The notes: generated by a model not told the origin, from the sequence alone. Shown: positions 1,156 to 16,612, counted from the first letter of the stretch. The stretch is DNA of 16,612 bases from a virus (IMGVR_UViG_2778261179_000013:1-16612), one strand, 5' to 3'. Numbers and translations are program-made.

Positions 1156-2379
1156 ATGGCTGGCGAACTTAACAAACTGAGCGACAGGAAGTTAAAGGGA
1201 TTACATGGTATCCCGGCCAGTAAGATTGAGTTCTATGCTGATGGTGCCGGGCTGAGCGCCAAGGTAACTAAAGTTGGTGGTATTAGCTGGGTGTTTACTT
1301 ACCGACTCGACGGGCAGAAGCTGCATCGTCTTACTCTGGGACGATACCCGGATATGAGCCTCAAAGAGGCCCGTTCTTCGCGTGATAAATGCCGCCAATG
1401 GCTGGCCTCAGGTAAAGATCCAAAGCACCAGTTGGCGCTGACCACTCAGGAAACGCTTAAACCGGTCACTGTTAAGGAAGCTATCGAATACTGGATACGC
1501 GAATATGCAGAAGAGAACCGCGCGAATGTTGAAAGGCACAAAGCGGAGCTGCGTAAACACATTTATCCTTATATTGGGAAAATGGCGCTCGCTGACTGCG
1601 AAACCCGTTATTGGCTTGACTGCTTTGACAGGATGAAAAAGAAAACGCCAGTTGCTGCGGGTTATGTGTTCCAGATGTGCAAGCAAGCCCTGAAATTCTG
1701 CCGGGTTCGTCGCTATGCTGTGAGTACCGCGCTGGAAGATTTAACAATTCCAGATGTCGGTAAAAAACAGGCAAAAAAAGACCGGGTATTAAACGATAAA
1801 GAGGCTGGCGATTTATGGGCTGCCATTACCTCTGGAACTTGCTTCATGCCTTACTACACCAGGCTACTGACAATCTTAATGGTGTTTGGGTGCCGAACGC
1901 AGGAGGCCAGACTGTCAGAATGGAGTGAATGGGATATGGATGCCTGGGTCTGGACAGTTCCCAAAGAGCACAGCAAGGGCGGCGAGAAGATTGTAAGACC
2001 TGTGCCGGATGCCATGCGCAAATTCATTGAAATACTGCATGATGAAACGAAATTATCCGGCCTTTTGCTTGGGTCGGTTAAAGGCAGTGAAGCGGTAAGT
2101 CAGTGGGGCCGCGGTGTTTATAAAAAGCTGGGGCATTCTGAACCATGGACACTGCACGATCTAAGACGAACTTTAGCAACGCATATGAATAATATGGGTA
2201 TAGCACCACACGTTGTCGAACAGTTGTTGGGGCACTCAATGCCGGGAGTTATGGCGATTTATAACCGTAGTCTGTACTTGCCTGAGAAACTGGATGCGTT
2301 GAATAAATGGTATGACCGTCTCGATATTTTGGCGGGTAATCACTCGAATATTGTTATTTTAAAGGCTGGTGAGAAATGA
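1156..2379 (+). CDS. int: Tyrosine recombinase, P4-type phage integrase
   Basis: 407 aa. N-terminal arm-binding-type region (GLSAKVTKVGGISWVFTYRLDGQKLHRLTLGRYP), catalytic region with HDLRRTLATHM (HxxR) and the LGHSMPGVMAIYNRSLY tyrosine motif. Confidence 0.95.
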   Translation: MAGELNKLSDRKLKGLHGIPASKIEFYADGAGLSAKVTKVGGISWVFTYRLDGQKLHRLTLGRYPDMSLKEARSSRDKCRQWLASGKDPKHQLALTTQETLKPVTVKEAIEYWIREYAEENRANVERHKAELRKHIYPYIGKMALADCETRYWLDCFDRMKKKTPVAAGYVFQMCKQALKFCRVRRYAVSTALEDLTIPDVGKKQAKKDRVLNDKEAGDLWAAITSGTCFMPYYTRLLTILMVFGCRTQEARLSEWSEWDMDAWVWTVPKEHSKGGEKIVRPVPDAMRKFIEILHDETKLSGLLLGSVKGSEAVSQWGRGVYKKLGHSEPWTLHDLRRTLATHMNNMGIAPHVVEQLLGHSMPGVMAIYNRSLYLPEKLDALNKWYDRLDILAGNHSNIVILKAGEK

Positions 2380-2678
2380 AAAAGATAAATAAAATGACCG
2401 AATTACCGAAATGGTTTTCATTGGACAATTACAATTCTATCAATGGGCTGAGTGATCTTGATTTAATTAATCAGTTAGCTATGAGAATGGAAGTTGCTAA
2501 TGATGATTTTGAATGGCTTGATACCTATCCCGGAGCAAGAAATGAGTTCGCTTCATTTATGGAAGAAAGATTTAGTAACCCAATTCGGCCACTGAGCGGA
2601 AAATTATTTGCAGAAAAAATAAAAAGAAAAAATATTCTGAATGGCAAATGGATTCCGTCGGAGGTGTTGAGCCTTTAA
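2376..2678 (+). CDS. Hypothetical protein (AT-rich cargo ORF)
   Basis: 100-aa ORF whose ATG overlaps the int stop (ATGA at 2376-2379). Markedly AT-rich compared with the flanking genes. No motif recognised. Confidence 0.4.
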   Translation: MKKINKMTELPKWFSLDNYNSINGLSDLDLINQLAMRMEVANDDFEWLDTYPGARNEFASFMEERFSNPIRPLSGKLFAEKIKRKNILNGKWIPSEVLSL

Positions 2679-3163
2679 GATTAATTGATGTGATGCAGTT
2701 GTCTAAGAAAGCCGCTCATTATATTGATGAAAATAAAATTAATCGCTCATTGCGTGGACAAAAAAGGTCTGTAAGTAAGACCATAAGCGATAATGATCAA
2801 ATGCATATTACTTTAGATTTGTCTTGGCCTGATGAAATTTTATTAAGCGATTTGGCTGCATTGTTGCCAATATGGCGAATGGATCTTGAAAGGAAAAGTG
2901 AAAATAGTTGTAAGTTAAGTAATAGCTGGAGTGTAATCAAAAAGAAAATATTCGATTGCAAGATATTGCCAATGTTAGACCTTATGGAGTGGGCTAAAAT
3001 TAACAATGCAACAATCACTAACAGAGTTTTATCTTTAGCCCTGTTTCCTAATGCAGAGTATGACGCCATTGGTATCGCTCAAACGATCAAACCGTTCATT
3101 AGAAATTTTTCCGCAGATTTTTCTATAGAAATATTAAAGCGCAAAGCTATGGATTCATTTTAA
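2648..3163 (+). CDS. Hypothetical protein (AT-rich cargo ORF); start uncertain (alternative ATG at 2693)
   Basis: 171-aa ORF in a different frame, overlapping the previous ORF by 31 nt just after an A-rich run (2606-2632). Either a separate gene or the distal half of a frameshifted gene. No motif recognised. Confidence 0.45.
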   Translation: MDSVGGVEPLRLIDVMQLSKKAAHYIDENKINRSLRGQKRSVSKTISDNDQMHITLDLSWPDEILLSDLAALLPIWRMDLERKSENSCKLSNSWSVIKKKIFDCKILPMLDLMEWAKINNATITNRVLSLALFPNAEYDAIGIAQTIKPFIRNFSADFSIEILKRKAMDSF

Positions 3164-3266: not shown

Positions 3267-3551
3267 ATGCAAAATATCACCTTTATCCCGCCAAATCCTG
3301 AGCAGCGCCGCACCCTTTTAGAGGAGTACGGCTTTAAGTTCGACCGTCGAATCCGTGAAGAAGAATGTAGCGAGATCACCAGCCTTTCCCGTTCCAGCCG
3401 CTGGAAGATGGAACAGCAGGGGCGCTTCCCTCCGCGCTGTCACTTTGGCCGCAATAGCTGTGCCTGGCTTCTTTCGGATGTGCTCTGGTGGGTTCGTAAT
3501 CCGCCAGCAGTAGAGAACGTCAATAACCCGTACAGCCGCAAATCTGCTTAA
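3267..3551 (+). CDS. alpA: AlpA-family phage transcriptional regulator (helix-turn-helix)
   Basis: 94 aa. EITSLSRSSRWKMEQQGRFPPRCHFGRNSCAWLLSDVLWW matches the AlpA pattern (tGlSRst.Y ... G.FP ... G.rsv.W ... eV..Wl). GGAGG lies upstream of the ATG. Confidence 0.7.
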   Translation: MQNITFIPPNPEQRRTLLEEYGFKFDRRIREEECSEITSLSRSSRWKMEQQGRFPPRCHFGRNSCAWLLSDVLWWVRNPPAVENVNNPYSRKSA

Positions 3552-3571: not shown

Positions 3572-4378
3572 ATGGAAAAAATAACTGCCTTGGCTGGCAG
3601 CGGCCAAACTCACCCCGAAACCAGCCAGAAAGATATTTCCAGCGATAATTTTGCTGCCCGGATCCCTGTAACCATGAGCACTATTGGTGGGAAAGAAACT
3701 CAGTCTGTAAGTGGTCGTAAGCTGCATACGTTTCTAGCTGTAGGGCGAGACTTTACCACCTGGATGAAAGCACGCATCAAACAGTATGGGTTTGTTAAAG
3801 GGGTTGATTATGTAATTGTTGAAGATTTGAGCACCCCAAAACGGGGGAGCGCAAAATCTCGCCAACAAGTCGAGCACGATTACATTGTCAGCCTGAATAT
3901 GGCTAAAGAGCTTTCTATGGTTGAGCGCAACGCGCAAGGCAAGATGGCCCGCCAGTATTTCATCGACTGTGAAGAACGTCTGCGCCGCGTAGCACCAGAG
4001 GAACATGAGGCGGCGTTGTTGGGCTGGCGTAAAAATCGTGTAGCTGCCTGCGAAGATCATAAGAGTATGGCCGATGCAATGAAGGGCTATATCGAGCGCA
4101 CCGGCGACAGGCAGCACGGCTTTGCCTACAGCAATGAATGCTCGTTCCTGAATAGCCTTGTGCTGGGTATGCACCCGCGAGTGTGGGCGAAACAGAAAGA
4201 AATTCCAGTTAAGCTGGTGCGTGACCATATGAACGCCGATCAGCTGGCGCTGCTGGCTTATCTGGAAAGCCGTGATTGTGCTCTGCTGGATCTTGATACC
4301 CGTACGGCAACCCGTAAGGCGAAACTCACCGAACTGGCACAACGCTGGCTGGTTAAGCGTGTTGGAGGTGCTGAGTGA
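3572..4378 (+). CDS. Phage antirepressor-like protein (AntA-type N-terminal domain)
   Basis: 268 aa. SGRKLHTFLAVGRDFTTWMKARIKQYGFVKGVDYVIV resembles the AntA/AntB antirepressor N-terminal motif (sARdLH.fL ... F..W ... ygF.eg.Dy). The C-terminal half is unassigned. Confidence 0.55.
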   Translation: MEKITALAGSGQTHPETSQKDISSDNFAARIPVTMSTIGGKETQSVSGRKLHTFLAVGRDFTTWMKARIKQYGFVKGVDYVIVEDLSTPKRGSAKSRQQVEHDYIVSLNMAKELSMVERNAQGKMARQYFIDCEERLRRVAPEEHEAALLGWRKNRVAACEDHKSMADAMKGYIERTGDRQHGFAYSNECSFLNSLVLGMHPRVWAKQKEIPVKLVRDHMNADQLALLAYLESRDCALLDLDTRTATRKAKLTELAQRWLVKRVGGAE

Positions 4379-4708
4379 TTTTGCATAACTCAATCAGGGT
4401 TGCGCAGAATTTGAGCCGACGAAATTCGCACGCGCAAATCAAGCTCGGTGATATGCCGAGTTTGAACAACCGCGTACTTTTAACGTACGGACATAGCAAC
4501 CCATTGAATCATCTTAATTATCGCGAAATGCGAGAATTGGCGAGCAACGAACACGAACAGTATTCGGGTTCGCCTGAACATCAACACTGCTTAGGTTCAG
4601 AGGTTCCGACGAATAACGTAGAGAGCTGCAATGGCAGCGCATTTTTGCTCTACGAGGGAAATCAACAACGTACAGTTTTGTACCGTAATCCAGATTTGGC
4701 TTACGAGA

Positions 4709-4768
4709 GGGTAGTACCTCAAAGTCACGAGGTTAACAGGGTAGTAACTCATAGTTACCAGGTTAACC
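4709..4768. repeat. Tandem direct repeat, 2 x 30 bp (25/30 identical), each unit containing GTTAAC
   Basis: gggtagtacctcaaagtcacgaggttaaca (4709-4738) and gggtagtaactcatagttaccaggttaacc (4739-4768). The units carry different internal stems (ACCTC/GAGGT in unit 1, GTAACT/AGTTAC in unit 2). Confidence 0.8.
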
Positions 4769-4877
4769 GCGTCGCTAAAAGATACGCGGAAAGCAAGACC
4801 TCTTTAAGAGGGGCAGTTCAGTGCGTGGAGACCTACGAAATTTTCGTAGGTCACAGCATTACCGAGAGTAACCCTGT

Positions 4878-5063
4878 TCAGCTTTCAGATTCCGATCTGG
4901 CTTTCTTGCGTTGGCGGCGTTTGATCTCGCATTGCATGGCTGTAACGATAAATTGGGCAGTGCTTTCGCCTTGCTCTTTAACTTGTTCCATTGCCTCGAC
5001 AACTTCATGCGGGGCACGAGTTTGCAATTTTTGTGATTTTTCGTTCTTTGTTCCCGTCGCCAT
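4878..5063 (-). CDS. Ribbon-helix-helix (Arc/CopG/MetJ-like) transcriptional regulator, probable island repressor
   Basis: 61 aa from the ATG at 5061-5063 (minus), preceded by AGGAGA with a 7-nt spacer. QKLQTRAP-HEVVEAMEQVKEQ-GES-TAQFIVTAMQCEI fits the RHH beta-strand / helix A / G-x-S turn / helix B pattern. The supplied ORF track starts it at a TTG at 5084. Confidence 0.65.
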   Translation of the reverse strand: MATGTKNEKSQKLQTRAPHEVVEAMEQVKEQGESTAQFIVTAMQCEIKRRQRKKARSESES

Positions 5064-5081
5064 TACTAAGTCTCCTGATAT

Positions 5082-5190
5082 CAAGTGGAGTACAGAATAC
5101 CAGAAAAATAATGAAATAAAACACTTGAAGTGGATTCCACTTTGTATTTATAGTGGAGTCCACCTTGAAGGGGTTCACCTTCAAGATATA
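5082..5190. promoter_or_regulatory. Divergent promoter/operator region with interleaved inverted repeats (half-sites AAGTGGA / TCCACTT and CACTT / AAGTG)
   Basis: cacttgaagtg (5122-5132) and aagtgga-t-tccactt (5128-5142) are overlapping palindromes; agtggagtccac (5152-5163) and ccttgaagg plus caccttcaag (5161-5185) follow. The region lies between the RHH gene and the rightward operon. Confidence 0.55.
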
Positions 5191-5261
5191 GCGAAGCCCG
5201 GCAGTGCGCGAACACTAACCGGGCCTCTGACCACCAAGATAGTTAACGTATCGAGGCAGCT

Positions 5262-5450
5262 ATGAAAGATTATATCACACACCCGCAAGGGCGGAAGTCC
5301 TACACCTGGCGTTTTCTGGCGCTGAGCGCCATCGGTCGCAACGTCATTCACATCAAAGCTACCACCGAACGCGAAGCCCGTGAGCAATCACCGGCTGGCT
5401 GCGTGATGGTATTCGCTGGCCGTCTGCCTGTGGAGGTGCGCCATGCGTGA
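5262..5450 (+). CDS. Hypothetical small protein (first gene of the rightward replication operon)
   Basis: 62-aa ORF with GAGG 5 nt upstream of the ATG; overlaps the next ORF. Confidence 0.5.
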   Translation: MKDYITHPQGRKSYTWRFLALSAIGRNVIHIKATTEREAREQSPAGCVMVFAGRLPVEVRHA

Positions 5451-5637
5451 GCCAATCAGCTTAGACCAGGCAGAATACAAATCAGCGCTGGCTGCTTCAC
5501 TTTTCGAAACCATTCTGGAAAAAGCCTGTGCTGAGTGTTCGGAAACCCTGCTGAACCATATCTCACTGGCATGTGACCTTAATCAGGAAATTCACCGGGC
5601 ATTAATCGCCGAGCTGGGTATGGGAGATGCGAAATGA
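5443..5637 (+). CDS. Hypothetical small protein
   Basis: 64-aa ORF with GGAGG 6 nt upstream of the ATG; its stop overlaps the next start (ATGA at 5634-5637). Confidence 0.5.
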   Translation: MREPISLDQAEYKSALAASLFETILEKACAECSETLLNHISLACDLNQEIHRALIAELGMGDAK

Positions 5638-5852
5638 GACAGGTTCCTTTTGAAGTCCTGATGCACGCTGAAAATGCCCTTTCTGAAAGCGAAGGAGCCT
5701 ATGAGGTTCTCAGCATGTGGCTAGACAGTATTCCTGAAGGCGAGGAGTTCCACGGTGAAGCGTGCAAGGTAAGCGCAATCATGTCGCTGCTGCATAAATC
5801 TATCGGCGAGCTGGTGAAAGCGCGGGAGGCTTACAGTGAAAAACGCGCCTAA
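5634..5852 (+). CDS. Hypothetical small acidic protein
   Basis: 72-aa ORF with GGAGA upstream; overlaps the start of the replication gene. Confidence 0.5.
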   Translation: MRQVPFEVLMHAENALSESEGAYEVLSMWLDSIPEGEEFHGEACKVSAIMSLLHKSIGELVKAREAYSEKRA

Positions 5853-7605
5853 CGTGAAAACCCTCCCACGCGACAAAATGGAGGAGGCCATCATCTTTGC
5901 CGGAACAGGAGCATGGAAAGCAGCTCAGGATTACCAGAAAGGTAAAGATGAGCATGGCGATGAGGTGCCGCCGGTTGTTCTGGATCATACCCAGCTGGCG
6001 GAATTACCCCACCTGCGCATTGTTGATAAAGGACGCCGATTTGCCCGTGTCTGTCAGGCCGGACTTATCGAACAAAACCAAATCAGTATGATTGCCAATA
6101 AGTTGTGTGAGGCTGGCGTTACCAATGCTGAGTTTATCAACGAAAAAGGTGAGAAAGAGGACTGGACGCCATTAATGAAGCGTCTGGAAGACGAGCCCCT
6201 AATGGTGACTACGAGGGGTAGCGCTACGCCAGCGCTTAACCAGATGGGAGCCAGCCAGCGCGGGGAAGTTCTGCTTGCTCATTACGATGGCAATCTGGCG
6301 ATCCATGCTGATTCCGACACGGTTCATCATTACAACGGCGTGGTGTGGGTTCCGCTTTCGGATAAAGAGCTGCAGCGAGAAATGGCGCAAATTTTTATTG
6401 ATGCCGAAGTCGCCTATTCGCAGAACGCGATTAAATCCGCTGTCGATACAATGAAGCTGGGTCTGCCAGTGATGGGTAACACAGCCCGAAATCTTATTGG
6501 TTTCAGCAACGGGGTTTTTGATACCCGGTTAGGGCAATTTCGACCACATGATAAAAAGGACTGGCTTATCGTTGCGAGCGAATTGCCATTCAGCGAACCA
6601 GCAGAAGGAGAGACTCTGGCAACCCATGCGCCGAACTTCTGGAAATGGCTCCGCCGCTCTGTGGCGGATAATGACAGAAAATCAGACCGCGTACTGTCTG
6701 CTCTGTTCATGGTGCTGGCGAACCGGTACGACTGGCAGCTGTTTCTTGAGGTAACGGGGCCGGGCGGAAGTGGTAAAAGTGTTATGGCTGAGATCTGCAC
6801 GATGCTGGCCGGCAAAGCCAATACGGTATCGGCAAGCATGGCGGCGCTGGAGAACCCAAGGGAAAGGGCGCTGGTGGTTGGCTATTCGCTGATTATCATG
6901 CCGGATATGACCCGGTACGCTGGCGACGGCGCAGGGATTAAAGCTATCACTGGCGGGGATAAGGTAGCTATCGACCCTAAACACAAAGCGCCGTATTCAA
7001 CGCGTATTCCGGCAGTGGTGCTGGCCGTCAATAACAATGCCATGTCATTCAGCGACCGAAGCGGTGGTATTTCGCGTCGTCGGGTTATTTTTAACTTCTC
7101 AGAGGTGGTACCGGAAAACGAACGTGATCCTATGCTTGCCGAGAAGATTGAAGGTGAGCTGGCCGTTATCATTCGCCACCTGCTTACTCGCTTTTCCAGA
7201 CAGGACGAGGCCAAACAGCTTTTGCATGAGCAGCAGAAATCAGAAGAGGCGCTGGCCATCAAACGTGAAGGGGATTCACTGGTGGACTTTTGCGGCTACC
7301 TGATGGCTTCGGTCGTATGTGATGGCATGTTTATCGGGAACGCCGAGATCGTACCGTTCAGCCCGCGCCGTTATCTGTATCACGCTTATCTGGCTTATAT
7401 GCGGGCTAACGGCCTGAGCAAGCCGGTGTCGCTGATGAGGTTCGGCACGGATATGCCAGGCGCAATGGCTGAATATGGCAAGGAGTACCAGAAGCGCAAA
7501 ACAAAACATGGCATAAGATCAAACGTCACACTTCACGACGATTCAGAAGACTGGATGCCTATGTGGAATGATACTTCTCACAATACCGGAGAAAATCAAA
7601 AGTAA
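5836..7605 (+). CDS. Replication initiator / SF3 helicase of the P4 alpha (D5-like) family (PICI pri-rep-like)
   Basis: 589 aa. Walker A VTGPGGSGKS, a Walker B-like LIIMPDMT region, and a D5_N-like segment (IGFSNGVFDTRLGQFRPHDKKDW). GTG start at 5836 is preceded by GGGAGG with a 7-nt spacer. No EGYATA-type primase motif seen in the N-terminal ~300 aa. Confidence 0.85.
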   Translation: MKNAPNVKTLPRDKMEEAIIFAGTGAWKAAQDYQKGKDEHGDEVPPVVLDHTQLAELPHLRIVDKGRRFARVCQAGLIEQNQISMIANKLCEAGVTNAEFINEKGEKEDWTPLMKRLEDEPLMVTTRGSATPALNQMGASQRGEVLLAHYDGNLAIHADSDTVHHYNGVVWVPLSDKELQREMAQIFIDAEVAYSQNAIKSAVDTMKLGLPVMGNTARNLIGFSNGVFDTRLGQFRPHDKKDWLIVASELPFSEPAEGETLATHAPNFWKWLRRSVADNDRKSDRVLSALFMVLANRYDWQLFLEVTGPGGSGKSVMAEICTMLAGKANTVSASMAALENPRERALVVGYSLIIMPDMTRYAGDGAGIKAITGGDKVAIDPKHKAPYSTRIPAVVLAVNNNAMSFSDRSGGISRRRVIFNFSEVVPENERDPMLAEKIEGELAVIIRHLLTRFSRQDEAKQLLHEQQKSEEALAIKREGDSLVDFCGYLMASVVCDGMFIGNAEIVPFSPRRYLYHAYLAYMRANGLSKPVSLMRFGTDMPGAMAEYGKEYQKRKTKHGIRSNVTLHDDSEDWMPMWNDTSHNTGENQK

Positions 7606-9324: not shown

Positions 9325-10491
9325 ATGAAGAAACTACTCGAATTACGCCAGCAGAAAGCCACACTCAAAACCCAGATGCGTTCCATGCTGGACAAAGCCG
9401 ACACCGAAAAGCGCAGCCTGAACGAAGAAGAGGGCAAAAAGTTCGATGAACTCCGCGCCCAGGCTGATGCGCTTGAAGTTGAAATTACCCGCCTCGAAGC
9501 CGTCGCCGACGATCAGCGCAATCTGCCTGGTACTTCCGTTGAAGGTGAGCTAGTAAGCAACGACGAGCTGCGTCACTACATTATGACCGGTGATACCCGT
9601 TCTCTCTCCACGCTGGTGCAGGCTGACGGCGGTTATACCGTTATTCCTGAACTGGACAAAGAGATCATGCGTCAGTTGCAGGATGATAGCGTGATGCGCT
9701 CCATCGCAACGGTAAAGACCACCAAAACCAACGAATACCAGAAACTGGTATCTGTGGGCGGCACTACCGTTAAGCGCGGTACCGAAGGCGAAGCGCGTAC
9801 CGAAACCAGCACGCCGAAGATGGAGCGTGTTGATATCAAACTCAACCCGATCTACGCCTATCCGAAAACCACTCAGGAAATTCTCGACTTCTCTGAGGTG
9901 GATATTCTGGGCTGGCTGTCTTCTGAAATTGCCGACACCTTCACCGCTACCGAAGAGAGCGACTTTGTGAACGGCGACGGTGATAAAAAATCCAAAGGGT
10001 TCCTGTCTTACCCTCGCGCGGCCACAGCCGATAAAACCCGCCCGTTCGGTACGCTGGAGAAGATGGAAGCTGCTGACGTTTCCTCTGATGGCCTGATCGA
10101 CCTGCTGTATAAGCTGAAAGCCAAATACCGCAAAAACGCCGTATGGGTGATGAACTCCAATACCGCGGCCAAACTGCAAAAGCTGAAAAACGGCAACGGG
10201 GATTACATCTGGCGAGATCGTCTGGTTGCCGGTTCTCCCGATACGCTGCTGGGCCGTCCGGTTCAATATCTCGAAACCATGCCAGATGCGGAAGCAGGTG
10301 AAGCGTTCCTTGCTGTGGGCGACTTCAAACGCGGCTATTTCATCGTGGATCACACCACTGGTGTGCGTACCCGTCCTGACAACATCACCGAACCGGGTTT
10401 CTACAAGGTACATACCGATAAATACCTGGGCGGCGGCGTGGTGGACTCCAACGCCATCAAGGTGCTTGAGCTTTCCGGCTCCGGTTCCTGA
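9325..10491 (+). CDS. Major capsid protein, HK97 family (with N-terminal delta/scaffold-like coiled coil)
   Basis: 388 aa. N-terminal coiled-coil region (LELRQQKATLKTQMRSMLDKADTEKRSLNEEEGKKFDELRAQADALEVEITRLEA) and HK97-MCP-like core blocks (GGYTVIPE ... AVWVMNSNTAAKLQKLKNGNGDYIW ... LLGRPV ... GDFKRGYFIVDH). Confidence 0.9.
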   Translation: MKKLLELRQQKATLKTQMRSMLDKADTEKRSLNEEEGKKFDELRAQADALEVEITRLEAVADDQRNLPGTSVEGELVSNDELRHYIMTGDTRSLSTLVQADGGYTVIPELDKEIMRQLQDDSVMRSIATVKTTKTNEYQKLVSVGGTTVKRGTEGEARTETSTPKMERVDIKLNPIYAYPKTTQEILDFSEVDILGWLSSEIADTFTATEESDFVNGDGDKKSKGFLSYPRAATADKTRPFGTLEKMEAADVSSDGLIDLLYKLKAKYRKNAVWVMNSNTAAKLQKLKNGNGDYIWRDRLVAGSPDTLLGRPVQYLETMPDAEAGEAFLAVGDFKRGYFIVDHTTGVRTRPDNITEPGFYKVHTDKYLGGGVVDSNAIKVLELSGSGS

Positions 10492-10539
10492 TTTGACGTT
10501 TGAGGGGCTTAGGCCCCTTTTCTCCTGTGGAGTCCAACA

Positions 10540-15718: not shown

Positions 15719-16612
15719 TTAATATTCGACTTGCTGAGCCGGAACGGAGTTTAAAATCCAGCATTCTTGATGGACAAAATTTATATTCAGAGCAGATAAA
15801 TATTGTTGCTCATATGCTCTGTATATTAATAGTTTTGTTTGATTCTGATCATCCAATTCATAATCCGTTTTTGCAGTGCTCCATTGGGAGTGAAGCATTA
15901 CTGATTGAACAAAGGAGTTCATCTTTATACTCATGTTCATTACATTTGAAGATGTTCCGGCATATTTGTATGAGTCGATTACCGTGTTTTTTCCATCGCC
16001 ATCAACATCGAAAGGATTGGATATCCACTTGAATGTATTTAACAAAAAAAGATTGGCGACCCAAGTGTAATCGTTGCCGTTTATATTTTCTGTGGTAGAA
16101 GAGCTAATGCTTTCATGGAGATTGGTTGCCCCCATGAAAATCGCCTCAGGATCTATCTTTCCGTCAGACCTTCGCTGCCTTCCGGCTGCTAAGTAATTGA
16201 AAATGCCAGCATAACACTGCCCCATATATACTATCGCTCTATCTAAATCTGGCGTTGTTTTTATGCGATTAAGTAACCTATAGGGCGGTATTGGTGGGAG
16301 GGCGTCCAATCCATGCATACTTCCATGACCCGTTATAAATATAACTATATTATCATGGGTATTATCGTCGCAATCCGAAAAAAATTCGCTGCTTCTTTTT
16401 ACATTATATTGATGGTTAGTGCCAACTGAGATTAATTTTTGTATATTTCCTCTGTTGTTTCCATCTATATAAATAAAAATATCAGCAGGATTAATTCCAC
16501 GATTTTCTAAGCAGTAAATCCCAAAGGCCAGATCAGAAACATGCCGATCTTCCGGCTCACTGCTGGAAGCCAAAAAAAGAACCCATTTTGTTTTGTCTGC
16601 TAATAGCCCCAT
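15719..16612 (-). CDS. Caspase-like (clan CD, C13/C14-type) peptidase-domain protein; N-terminus at the window edge, possibly partial
   Basis: 297 aa on the minus strand with stop at 15719-15721 and ATG exactly at 16610-16612. Clan CD layout: hydrophobic strand ending in His-Gly (NIVIFITGHG) followed about 38 residues later by a strand ending in the catalytic-type Cys (AIVYMGQCYAG). AT-rich and convergent with terL. Confidence 0.6.
   Translation of the reverse strand: MGLLADKTKWVLFLASSSEPEDRHVSDLAFGIYCLENRGINPADIFIYIDGNNRGNIQKLISVGTNHQYNVKRSSEFFSDCDDNTHDNIVIFITGHGSMHGLDALPPIPPYRLLNRIKTTPDLDRAIVYMGQCYAGIFNYLAAGRQRRSDGKIDPEAIFMGATNLHESISSSTTENINGNDYTWVANLFLLNTFKWISNPFDVDGDGKNTVIDSYKYAGTSSNVMNMSIKMNSFVQSVMLHSQWSTAKTDYELDDQNQTKLLIYRAYEQQYLSALNINFVHQECWILNSVPAQQVEY

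Follow-up and report, generated by a model that had tools for sequence, protein, structure and literature searches.

In phage lambda immunity, the repressor gene cI is divergent from the lytic genes, and of three operators (OR1-3) two lie on the lytic promoter PR and one on the repressor's own promoter, PRM; many heteroimmune specificity classes exist. The immI region of P22 encodes the ribbon-helix-helix (RHH) repressors Arc and Mnt, with ant as target and a 21-bp operator bound by a tetramer. It is well established that the plasmids pMV158 (CopG and RNAII) and R1 (CopB and CopA) control their replication operons through a small repressor, whose gene comes first in the rep operon, and a short antisense RNA whose sequence complements a translation-initiation region. 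In P1 immI (c4 RNA, icd, ant), a small structured RNA targets the start of icd, and blocked icd translation lowers downstream expression through translational coupling. The replication operon of the satellite P4 is held off by an RNA as well, the CI immunity RNA, and in staphylococcal pathogenicity islands (SaPIs) and Gram-positive phage-inducible chromosomal islands (PICIs) the repressors Stl and Rpr are encoded divergently from the satellite replication module. Here we analyse a 16,612-nucleotide stretch of viral DNA (IMGVR_UViG_2778261179_000013:1-16612; hereafter the window), which by its gene set is a capsid-forming PICI (cf-PICI) of the EcCIEDL933 type adjoining yhdJ. Its interval 4878-5261 is probably a two-layer control region of the island's replication operon, in which an RHH repressor of 61 residues would act on three operators (O1-O3) and an antisense RNA on the start of the first gene, icd. 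What is new is a variant that combines known kinds of regulation and is more structured than was first noted.

The region resembles each of these systems in part. As in lambda, a divergent repressor is combined with three predicted operators, two on the replication promoter and one on its own, and with many specificity classes; unlike in lambda, the predicted fold is RHH and not helix-turn-helix (HTH), a RecA-cleavable domain is missing, no counterpart of Cro was identified and the element is a satellite. The predicted RHH fold is that of Arc and Mnt, but the protein shows no detectable membership of their sequence family, its predicted operator unit is an 11-bp GTG-N5-CAC present three times, and its target would be a satellite replication operon. 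The pairing of a small repressor with a short RNA complementary to a translation-initiation region recalls CopG/RNAII and CopB/CopA, although here the repressor gene is divergent and the RNA would target icd, the first of four coupled genes, rather than the replicase. With P1 the region shares an Icd-like first open reading frame (ORF) whose start would be targeted by a small structured RNA, and coupled downstream genes; with P4, a satellite replication operon that would be held off by RNA. Unlike in P1 and P4, the RNA would be cis-antisense and made from its own promoter instead of being a processed sense leader, it has no match among the Rfam C4 and IsrK models, and a protein repressor is also present. 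Finally, the divergence from a satellite replication module is as in Stl and Rpr, but the fold differs (predicted RHH versus HTH), a domain for binding an inducer is missing, int is not co-oriented with the repressor and control appears local; moreover, induction of Gram-negative islands runs via AlpA (PMC6092414). Lacking both the HTH and an inducer domain, the 61-residue protein is not an Stl-family repressor.

The elements of the proposed control region are listed below, with coordinates counted from the first letter of the window.

4878-5063, minus strand: 61-residue YlcI/YnfO-family gene, the proposed repressor, with a predicted RHH fold
5071-5076, minus strand: Shine-Dalgarno sequence AGGAGA of the repressor gene, 7-nt spacer to the ATG at 5063, read from the sequence
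5085-5095: predicted operator O3 (plus strand GTGGAGTACAG), overlapping the last two -10 bases and the predicted start of the repressor promoter; aligned in 96 loci
5094-5102, minus strand: predicted repressor promoter, extended -10 TGgTATTCT; TATACT in most relatives, hexamer column conserved
5125-5130, plus strand: -35 hexamer TTGAAG of the rightward icd-primase promoter, from a promoter scan; TTGA(C/A/G)G, mostly TTGACG, is conserved beside O2
5130-5140: predicted operator O2 (GTGGATTCCAC), sharing G5130 with the -35 hexamer and occupying the first part of the promoter spacer
5149-5154, plus strand: -10 hexamer TATAGT of the rightward promoter, from the promoter scan (18-nt spacer, 9 of 12 positions matched)
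5153-5163: predicted operator O1 (GTGGAGTCCAC), overlapping the -10 end and the predicted start of the rightward promoter
5164-5185, plus strand: inverted repeat CTTGAAGG-N6-CCTTCAAG, where the icd mRNA is predicted to begin; CACCTTGA...TCAAGGTG in most relatives
5172-5266, minus strand: predicted cis-antisense RNA of about 80-95 nt, fully complementary to the leader, Shine-Dalgarno sequence and start codon of icd
5193-5227, minus strand: terminator-like hairpin at the 3' end of the antisense RNA, followed by a U-rich, interrupted stretch
5230-5260, minus strand: 5' hairpin of the antisense RNA, with an anti-Shine-Dalgarno sequence in or beside the loop
5262-5450, plus strand: Icd-like gene, first of the rightward operon (NCBIfam NF033153, 62.5 bits), Shine-Dalgarno sequence GAGG at 5253-5256
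5269-5277, minus strand: predicted -10 of the antisense RNA promoter, TGaTATAAT, inside icd codons 3-6

The operators emerged from comparison of relatives. These comprised 50 loci from reference genomes and 80 from viral contigs plus exact-protein look-ups, for which the 140-215 nt upstream of the repressor gene were aligned. The conserved architecture is three 11-bp sites of the form (G/C)TG-N5-CAC; it recurs in 96 distinct loci, which span at least 10 genera of Enterobacterales (Escherichia, Klebsiella, Enterobacter, Serratia, Pectobacterium, Dickeya, Yersinia, Xenorhabdus, Proteus and Morganella). The first-pass annotation had described interleaved palindromes built from AAGTGGA/TCCACTT and CACTT/AAGTG half-sites. 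A repeat search indeed returned the 15-nt palindrome AAGTGGA-T-TCCACTT (5128-5142), a related AGTGGAGTCCAC (5152-5163) and a partial copy at 5084-5094, and the O1 sequence, with up to two mismatches, has 14 matches in the window against 2.9 expected, a count reached in none of 200 shuffles. The AAGTGGA/TCCACTT repeats are thus real and enriched, but the conserved unit is instead the threefold 11-mer: the longer repeat corresponds to O2 with its flanks and is palindromic only because the core of the window's class is nearly symmetric. The CACTT/AAGTG half-sites did not hold up as an operator, being merely the junction of the -35 hexamer TTGAAG with O2, which is not conserved in relatives.

The central 5-bp core of the sites varies between loci, but within any one locus the three sites have cores of one family; the core tracks residues 12, 14 and 17 in the predicted strand of the 61-residue protein. 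The strand sequences (residues 12-17) and their cores are as follows.

KLQ[TA]RA, KVQARA, KIQARA: core GGA-N-TCC (the window's class)
ALKARV, SLKSRV: core TGGCC
KLEARV: core TCAGC
QLNARF: core AATCG
KMSARV: core GCACC
RFDVRV: core TCGGA
MTTVRI: core AAATA
S[LV]TARI: core TCTTA
QIASRV: core CTAAC
QLASRV: core CTTAG
QVNVRV: core ATAGC
QVSVRL: core AACAC
LFTVRV: core AAACA
QKTARV: core ACTTG

No position shares more mutual information with operator class than residue 14, for which the value equals the residue's own entropy (2.73 bits), and the entropy of residues 17 and 12 is nearly all explained by the class, while that of helix and tail positions is not. Sixteen triples of residues 12, 14 and 17 map to core families, a correspondence that none of 10,000 label shuffles equalled; its sole exception is locus L003, with a degenerate O2. 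A prediction set beforehand also held: P0111, which combines the window's C-terminal tail with the strand QQLNARF, carries GTGAATCGCAC three times. The neighbouring genes behave differently. In L135, AlpA, Ant and Icd are 99%, 94% and 85% identical to those of the window, yet the core is ATAGC; in L093 and L099 (AlpA 96-98% identical) it is AATCG, and in L125 (AlpA 99%) CTAAC. Icd proteins 83-85% identical to the window's occur in other operator classes, and the window's class occurs also with Icd only 54-63% identical. The comparison of neighbours across loci revealed no covariation between Ant and the repressor, and AlpA, Ant and Icd were all rejected as the operator-binding factor, since none follows the operator class.

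Genomes with several copies hold only differing classes: four in Xenorhabdus innexi (L016, L021, L031 and L036), three in X. mauleonii, and two each in X. kozodoii, X. santafensis and Pectobacterium carotovorum. This is the distribution one would expect of classes that function as immunity groups. In an otherwise related island, L139 (E. coli NZ_CP070162.1, 2918-3250), the slot of the YlcI-type gene holds an unrelated, canonical RHH protein of 63 residues, annotated as a HicB family antitoxin, with two ACGTACGTACAT repeats of its own, the second overlapping the start codon; the antisense RNA module is retained, so that one cassette has been swapped for another in place. LR881103.1 encodes a distant, YnfO-type homologue with three sites of the form GTG-N6-CAC. 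Taken together, the comparisons lend strong support to the 61-residue protein as the putative specificity determinant of the operators.

Two near-perfect operator-like sites occur elsewhere in the window, at the capsid/protease junction: TTGGAGTCCAC (10441-10451) and GTGGAGTCCAA (10527-10537). One falls on the codons for the conserved VVDSN of the capsid protein, the other holds the ribosome site of the protease gene, and both are probably there by chance. We rejected them as a sign of island-wide control, as the cf-PICIs L137 and L138, which belong to other classes, have no own-class counterpart at this junction; their own-class operators are found only in the intergenic region between repressor and operon.

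The protein is a member of the YlcI/YnfO family: over residues 9-50 it scores 67.8 bits with NF041551 (E 6e-19), for which the cut-off is 30, in agreement with its PGAP name, and corresponds to PHROG 949, labelled as of unknown function. Modelled by AlphaFold with an alignment, about 45 residues adopt the strand-helix-helix topology of RHH proteins; the single-sequence model, one long helix, was discarded because many homologues have a proline in the 29-34 loop. The strand alternates between hydrophobic and polar residues (K/L/Q/T/R/A) and the G32-E33-S34 turn at the start of helix 2 is conserved, both hallmarks of the fold. Alignment with Arc by hhalign (E 0.0024, probability 12%) places K12, Q14 and R16 opposite Arc Q9, N11 and R13. 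Invariant across homologues are R16, P18, E33, F38 and a C-terminal EIKRRQR, and the single RHH is accompanied by neither a second nor a sensor domain. The protein is most likely an Arc-type RHH repressor.

The gene itself was correctly noted from the outset as a minus-strand ORF with an AGGAGA site facing a rightward operon across about 200 bp: the ORF 4878-5084 is present, and 198 bp separate the repressor ATG at 5063 from the one at 5262 that opens the rightward operon. The preference expressed then for the ATG at 5063 over the TTG at 5084 also proved sound. AGGAGA lies 7 nt from this ATG, RefSeq PGAP annotates the same 186-nt coding sequence (CDS) with the same start in an E. coli locus 99.9% identical to the window, and M1 with the MATG N-terminus is kept across 52 homologues; the TTG is an implausible start because it adjoins O3 and the predicted transcript start. 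Codon 45 (5045-5047), directly before the invariant EIKRRQR, encodes Cys in the window, where the family consensus and the 98% identical L052 have Gly.

The second layer of the proposed control is an RNA. In the aligned leaders the hairpin 5193-5227 and the sequence from it up to the icd start are strongly conserved. Read on the icd-sense strand, the paired columns contain 66 A.C cells against 4 G.T cells, so that wobble pairs exist only on the minus strand. Because G.U wobbles occur on that strand only, the selected structure is that of an RNA antisense to icd, and the hairpin as a leader structure of the icd mRNA was rejected. In the antisense orientation RNAalifold predicts two hairpins, in which 18 of the 23 pairs show compensatory changes, and the window's RNA folds at -34.1 kcal/mol (z -3.1). 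The predicted promoter has left a trace of its own: in 51 diverse leaders, the only three invariant columns within the first icd codons are T-12, A-11 and T-7 (TAnnnT) of the minus-strand -10, and they stay so even where Icd classes differ in the amino acids encoded. From 51 sequences we built a covariance model, which detected a single copy of the motif per locus in 37 of 42 further sources, among them the locus with the unrelated RHH protein; every copy lay on the strand of the repressor gene, with scores of 62-95 bits (window 72.9) against at most 29 bits on the other strand. The same model found no such motif in the Qin prophage of E. coli K-12. No Rfam family reached its gathering score in the window; at E-values up to 10, the best match within 4300-5500 was a weak SymR (E 0.054), and the C4, IsrK and P4 CI immunity RNA models had no match in the window. 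A search of open-access papers for antisense RNA in PICIs found nothing relevant.

These observations suggest the following mechanism. Repressor dimers would place their N-terminal two-stranded sheet in the major groove of the three 11-bp operators, where the invariant R16 would read the constant outer GTG/CAC, and residues 12 and 14, with 17, would set the 5-bp core. Occupancy of O2 and O1 would occlude the rightward promoter and keep icd, orf64, orf72 and the primase gene off; O3, lying over the -10/+1 region of the repressor's own promoter, would provide negative autoregulation, and the specificity classes would behave like immunity groups. The minus-strand RNA, starting from the -10 inside the first icd codons, would pair with the icd start codon, Shine-Dalgarno sequence and leader and block icd translation. 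Since the gene starts of the operon overlap the preceding stops (5443/5450, 5634/5637 and 5836/5852), this block would also lower expression of the primase. For release, two routes seem likeliest: AlpA-driven read-through from the alpA-ant operon, itself activated by the helper, or antagonism by the adjacent Ant/Bro-family protein. AlpA is the known activator of Gram-negative PICIs (PMC6092414), and read-through would resemble the PLL transcripts of P4 (P4 regulation summarised in PMC10111431).

How does this proposal fare against other explanations? The idea put forward in the first-pass annotation, a divergent repressor switch on the replication operon, is supported by the predicted RHH fold, the divergence, the predicted operators on both promoters and the covariation of specificity, and falls as regards the half-site anatomy. 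Taken in the sense of Stl, it would make the protein a master repressor that silences the whole island and is bound by a helper-phage protein to trigger induction. The divergent layout of repressor and replication genes with operators on the promoter would suit this role, and the invariant EIKRRQR could be an interaction surface. We nevertheless regard it as unlikely: a protein of 61 residues has no sensor domain, int and alpA lie outside the switch, and the confinement of own-class operators to one intergenic region in L137 and L138 makes control look local. Furthermore, cloned alpA alone drives excision and replication of EcCICFT073, and an alpA mutation abolishes induction and transfer of EcCIEDL933. 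Somewhat less improbable, though still on the doubtful side, is that the module serves mainly as a plasmid-type controller of copy number or replication after induction, like CopG and RNAII of pMV158, and not as a lysogeny-type off switch. Repressor and antisense RNA would both act on an operon ending in a primase/replicase, O3 implies negative autoregulation, and the site where translation of the first gene begins, to which the others are coupled, lies opposite the RNA. However, the repressor gene is divergent from the rep genes rather than co-transcribed with them, and the many orthogonal classes, with distinct ones in co-resident islands, fit immunity-like insulation equally. The roles of copy controller and off switch are not mutually exclusive.

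That the PGAP name of the same-slot protein in a related island is 'HicB family antitoxin', and that Icd-like proteins are annotated as division inhibitors, might suggest a type II antitoxin with an Icd-like inhibitor of cell division as its toxin. We consider this very unlikely, for the two genes are divergent and share no operon, whereas type II partners are co-transcribed; the variable RHH positions follow the DNA sites and not Icd; and the C-terminal stretch is invariant, with no variable toxin-binding region. It is more improbable still that the repeats are bound by some other factor (AlpA, Icd, Ant or a helper-phage repressor) or are mere RNA or terminator hairpins, with the small ORF incidental. 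The palindromes do score as terminator-like in a simple scan, and PHROGs labels Icd-like families 'transcriptional repressor', but changes of operator class leave AlpA, Ant and Icd almost unaltered. The cores, moreover, are often non-palindromic and stand as direct or inverted copies at fixed promoter positions, and the ORF is conserved, with R16, P18, E33 and F38 invariant.

Several points weigh against the two-layer control region that we favour. As for the fold, the AlphaFold model is a monomer, no Pfam RHH family matched the protein at E-values up to 0.1 (only a sub-threshold CTC1_2), searches of PDB sequences by phmmer and with a profile found no RHH chain, and the best Foldseek match in the PDB, VapB, was not significant (E 7.7). 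As for the specificity, the degenerate O2 of L003 departs from the pattern, and single-linkage clustering of the cores lumps several classes together (adjusted Rand index only 0.45), a chaining that understates the association between residues and cores. With no more than about 170 bp between the operators and codons 11-17, linkage contributes to that association, but it leaves the concerted change of three separate sites unexplained. As for the RNA, its U-tract is interrupted; the transcript may extend further, perhaps as a long leader of the repressor mRNA. Finally, published work on the induction of related islands invokes no repressor: AlpA is needed in EcCIEDL933, where an alpA mutation abolished induction and transfer (bioRxiv 10.1101/2022.09.08.507074), and is sufficient alone in EcCICFT073, where expression of cloned AlpA led to excision and replication (PMC6092414). 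The open-access papers searched on Gram-negative PICIs describe AlpA, a 'Bro zone' and immunity RNAs but not the gene proposed here as repressor, and one paper calls a global repressor unclear.

The surroundings of the control region are those of a cf-PICI as defined previously (bioRxiv 10.1101/2022.09.08.507074), as judged from the ORFs, Pfam matches and PGAP annotation of the 99.9% identical E. coli locus, which lies beside yhdJ and is annotated identically. The neighbouring features are these.

1156-2379: integrase gene
2376-3163: DUF6387 gene, between integrase and AlpA genes
3267-3551, plus strand: alpA (Pfam PF05930)
3572-4378, plus strand: AntA-family gene (Pfam PF08346), starting 21 bp past alpA
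between the AntA-family and repressor genes: non-coding spacer of 500 bp
4799-4811, minus strand: terminator-like hairpin with a T-rich tail, 3' of the repressor gene, from a terminator scan
5443-7605, plus strand: remainder of the operon, namely a 64-residue ORF, a 72-residue ORF and a D5/DUF5906 primase-helicase gene (ORF list, Pfam and PGAP)
5836-7605, plus strand: the D5/DUF5906 primase gene within it

The alpA and AntA-family genes are candidates for an upstream input to the switch. The spacer contains two tandem direct repeats of 30 nt (AGGGTAGTACCTCAAAGTCACGAGGTTAAC, 87% alike) at 4708-4767, possibly iterons or a protein-binding site, and after them a perfect palindrome with 11-bp arms at 4830-4852. 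The DUF6387 gene consists of two overlapping ORFs, 2376-2678 and 2648-3163 (788 nt in total), whereas the near-identical E. coli L001 has one CDS of 789 nt; the split is likely a 1-nt frameshift, marking either a pseudogene or a sequencing error. A plus-strand open frame of 296 residues (4375-5265) spans the whole switch and is almost certainly not a gene. A comparable frame has entered annotation in LR881103.1 (L140, 834-1808), where a CDS of 324 residues across the repressor gene, operators and icd hides the module. At the right end of the island, opposed to the packaging genes, the minus-strand ORF 15719-16612 (297 residues, without obvious annotation) may be an accessory or defence cargo gene.

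The family to which the protein belongs includes two members from E. coli K-12, YnfO of the prophage Qin and YlcI of DLP12, and the YnfO-type signature IRFP...NFSAWV is also found in the satellite homologue of LR881103.1. In the lambdoid Qin prophage, ynfO lies between nohA and ydfO (L141, 2757-2990), an arrangement that differs from that of the satellites. Inspection by eye found no clear operator triplet upstream of ynfO; CCACGTCAA, located there, resembles the O2/-35 junction of the satellite modules. Searches of open-access papers found neither a function for YlcI/YnfO nor an RHH repressor in phage satellites. Our proposal would be a first functional hypothesis for this family, whose K-12 members are not known to have a role.

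On a broader scale, we find it plausible, if slightly more doubtful than assured, that PICIs and cf-PICIs of Gram-negative bacteria carry an overlooked immunity module of protein and RNA: an Arc-like repressor with a simple, evolvable code at residues 12, 14 and 17 (at least 15 naturally orthogonal pairs) together with a cis-antisense RNA on the icd ribosome site, which would act as an off switch of the replication operon, insulate co-resident satellites from one another and be overridden by AlpA. The one-to-one relation between two or three strand residues and the 5-bp core, with more than 15 natural classes, would provide a data set from which to derive orthogonal repressor parts and the code of RHH recognition. 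The antisense RNA would constitute a family that Rfam does not hold and would parallel the RNA immunity of P1 and P4. The module is a candidate for the silencing side of the PICI circuit, and it occurs in experimentally tractable islands of the EcCIEDL933 type.
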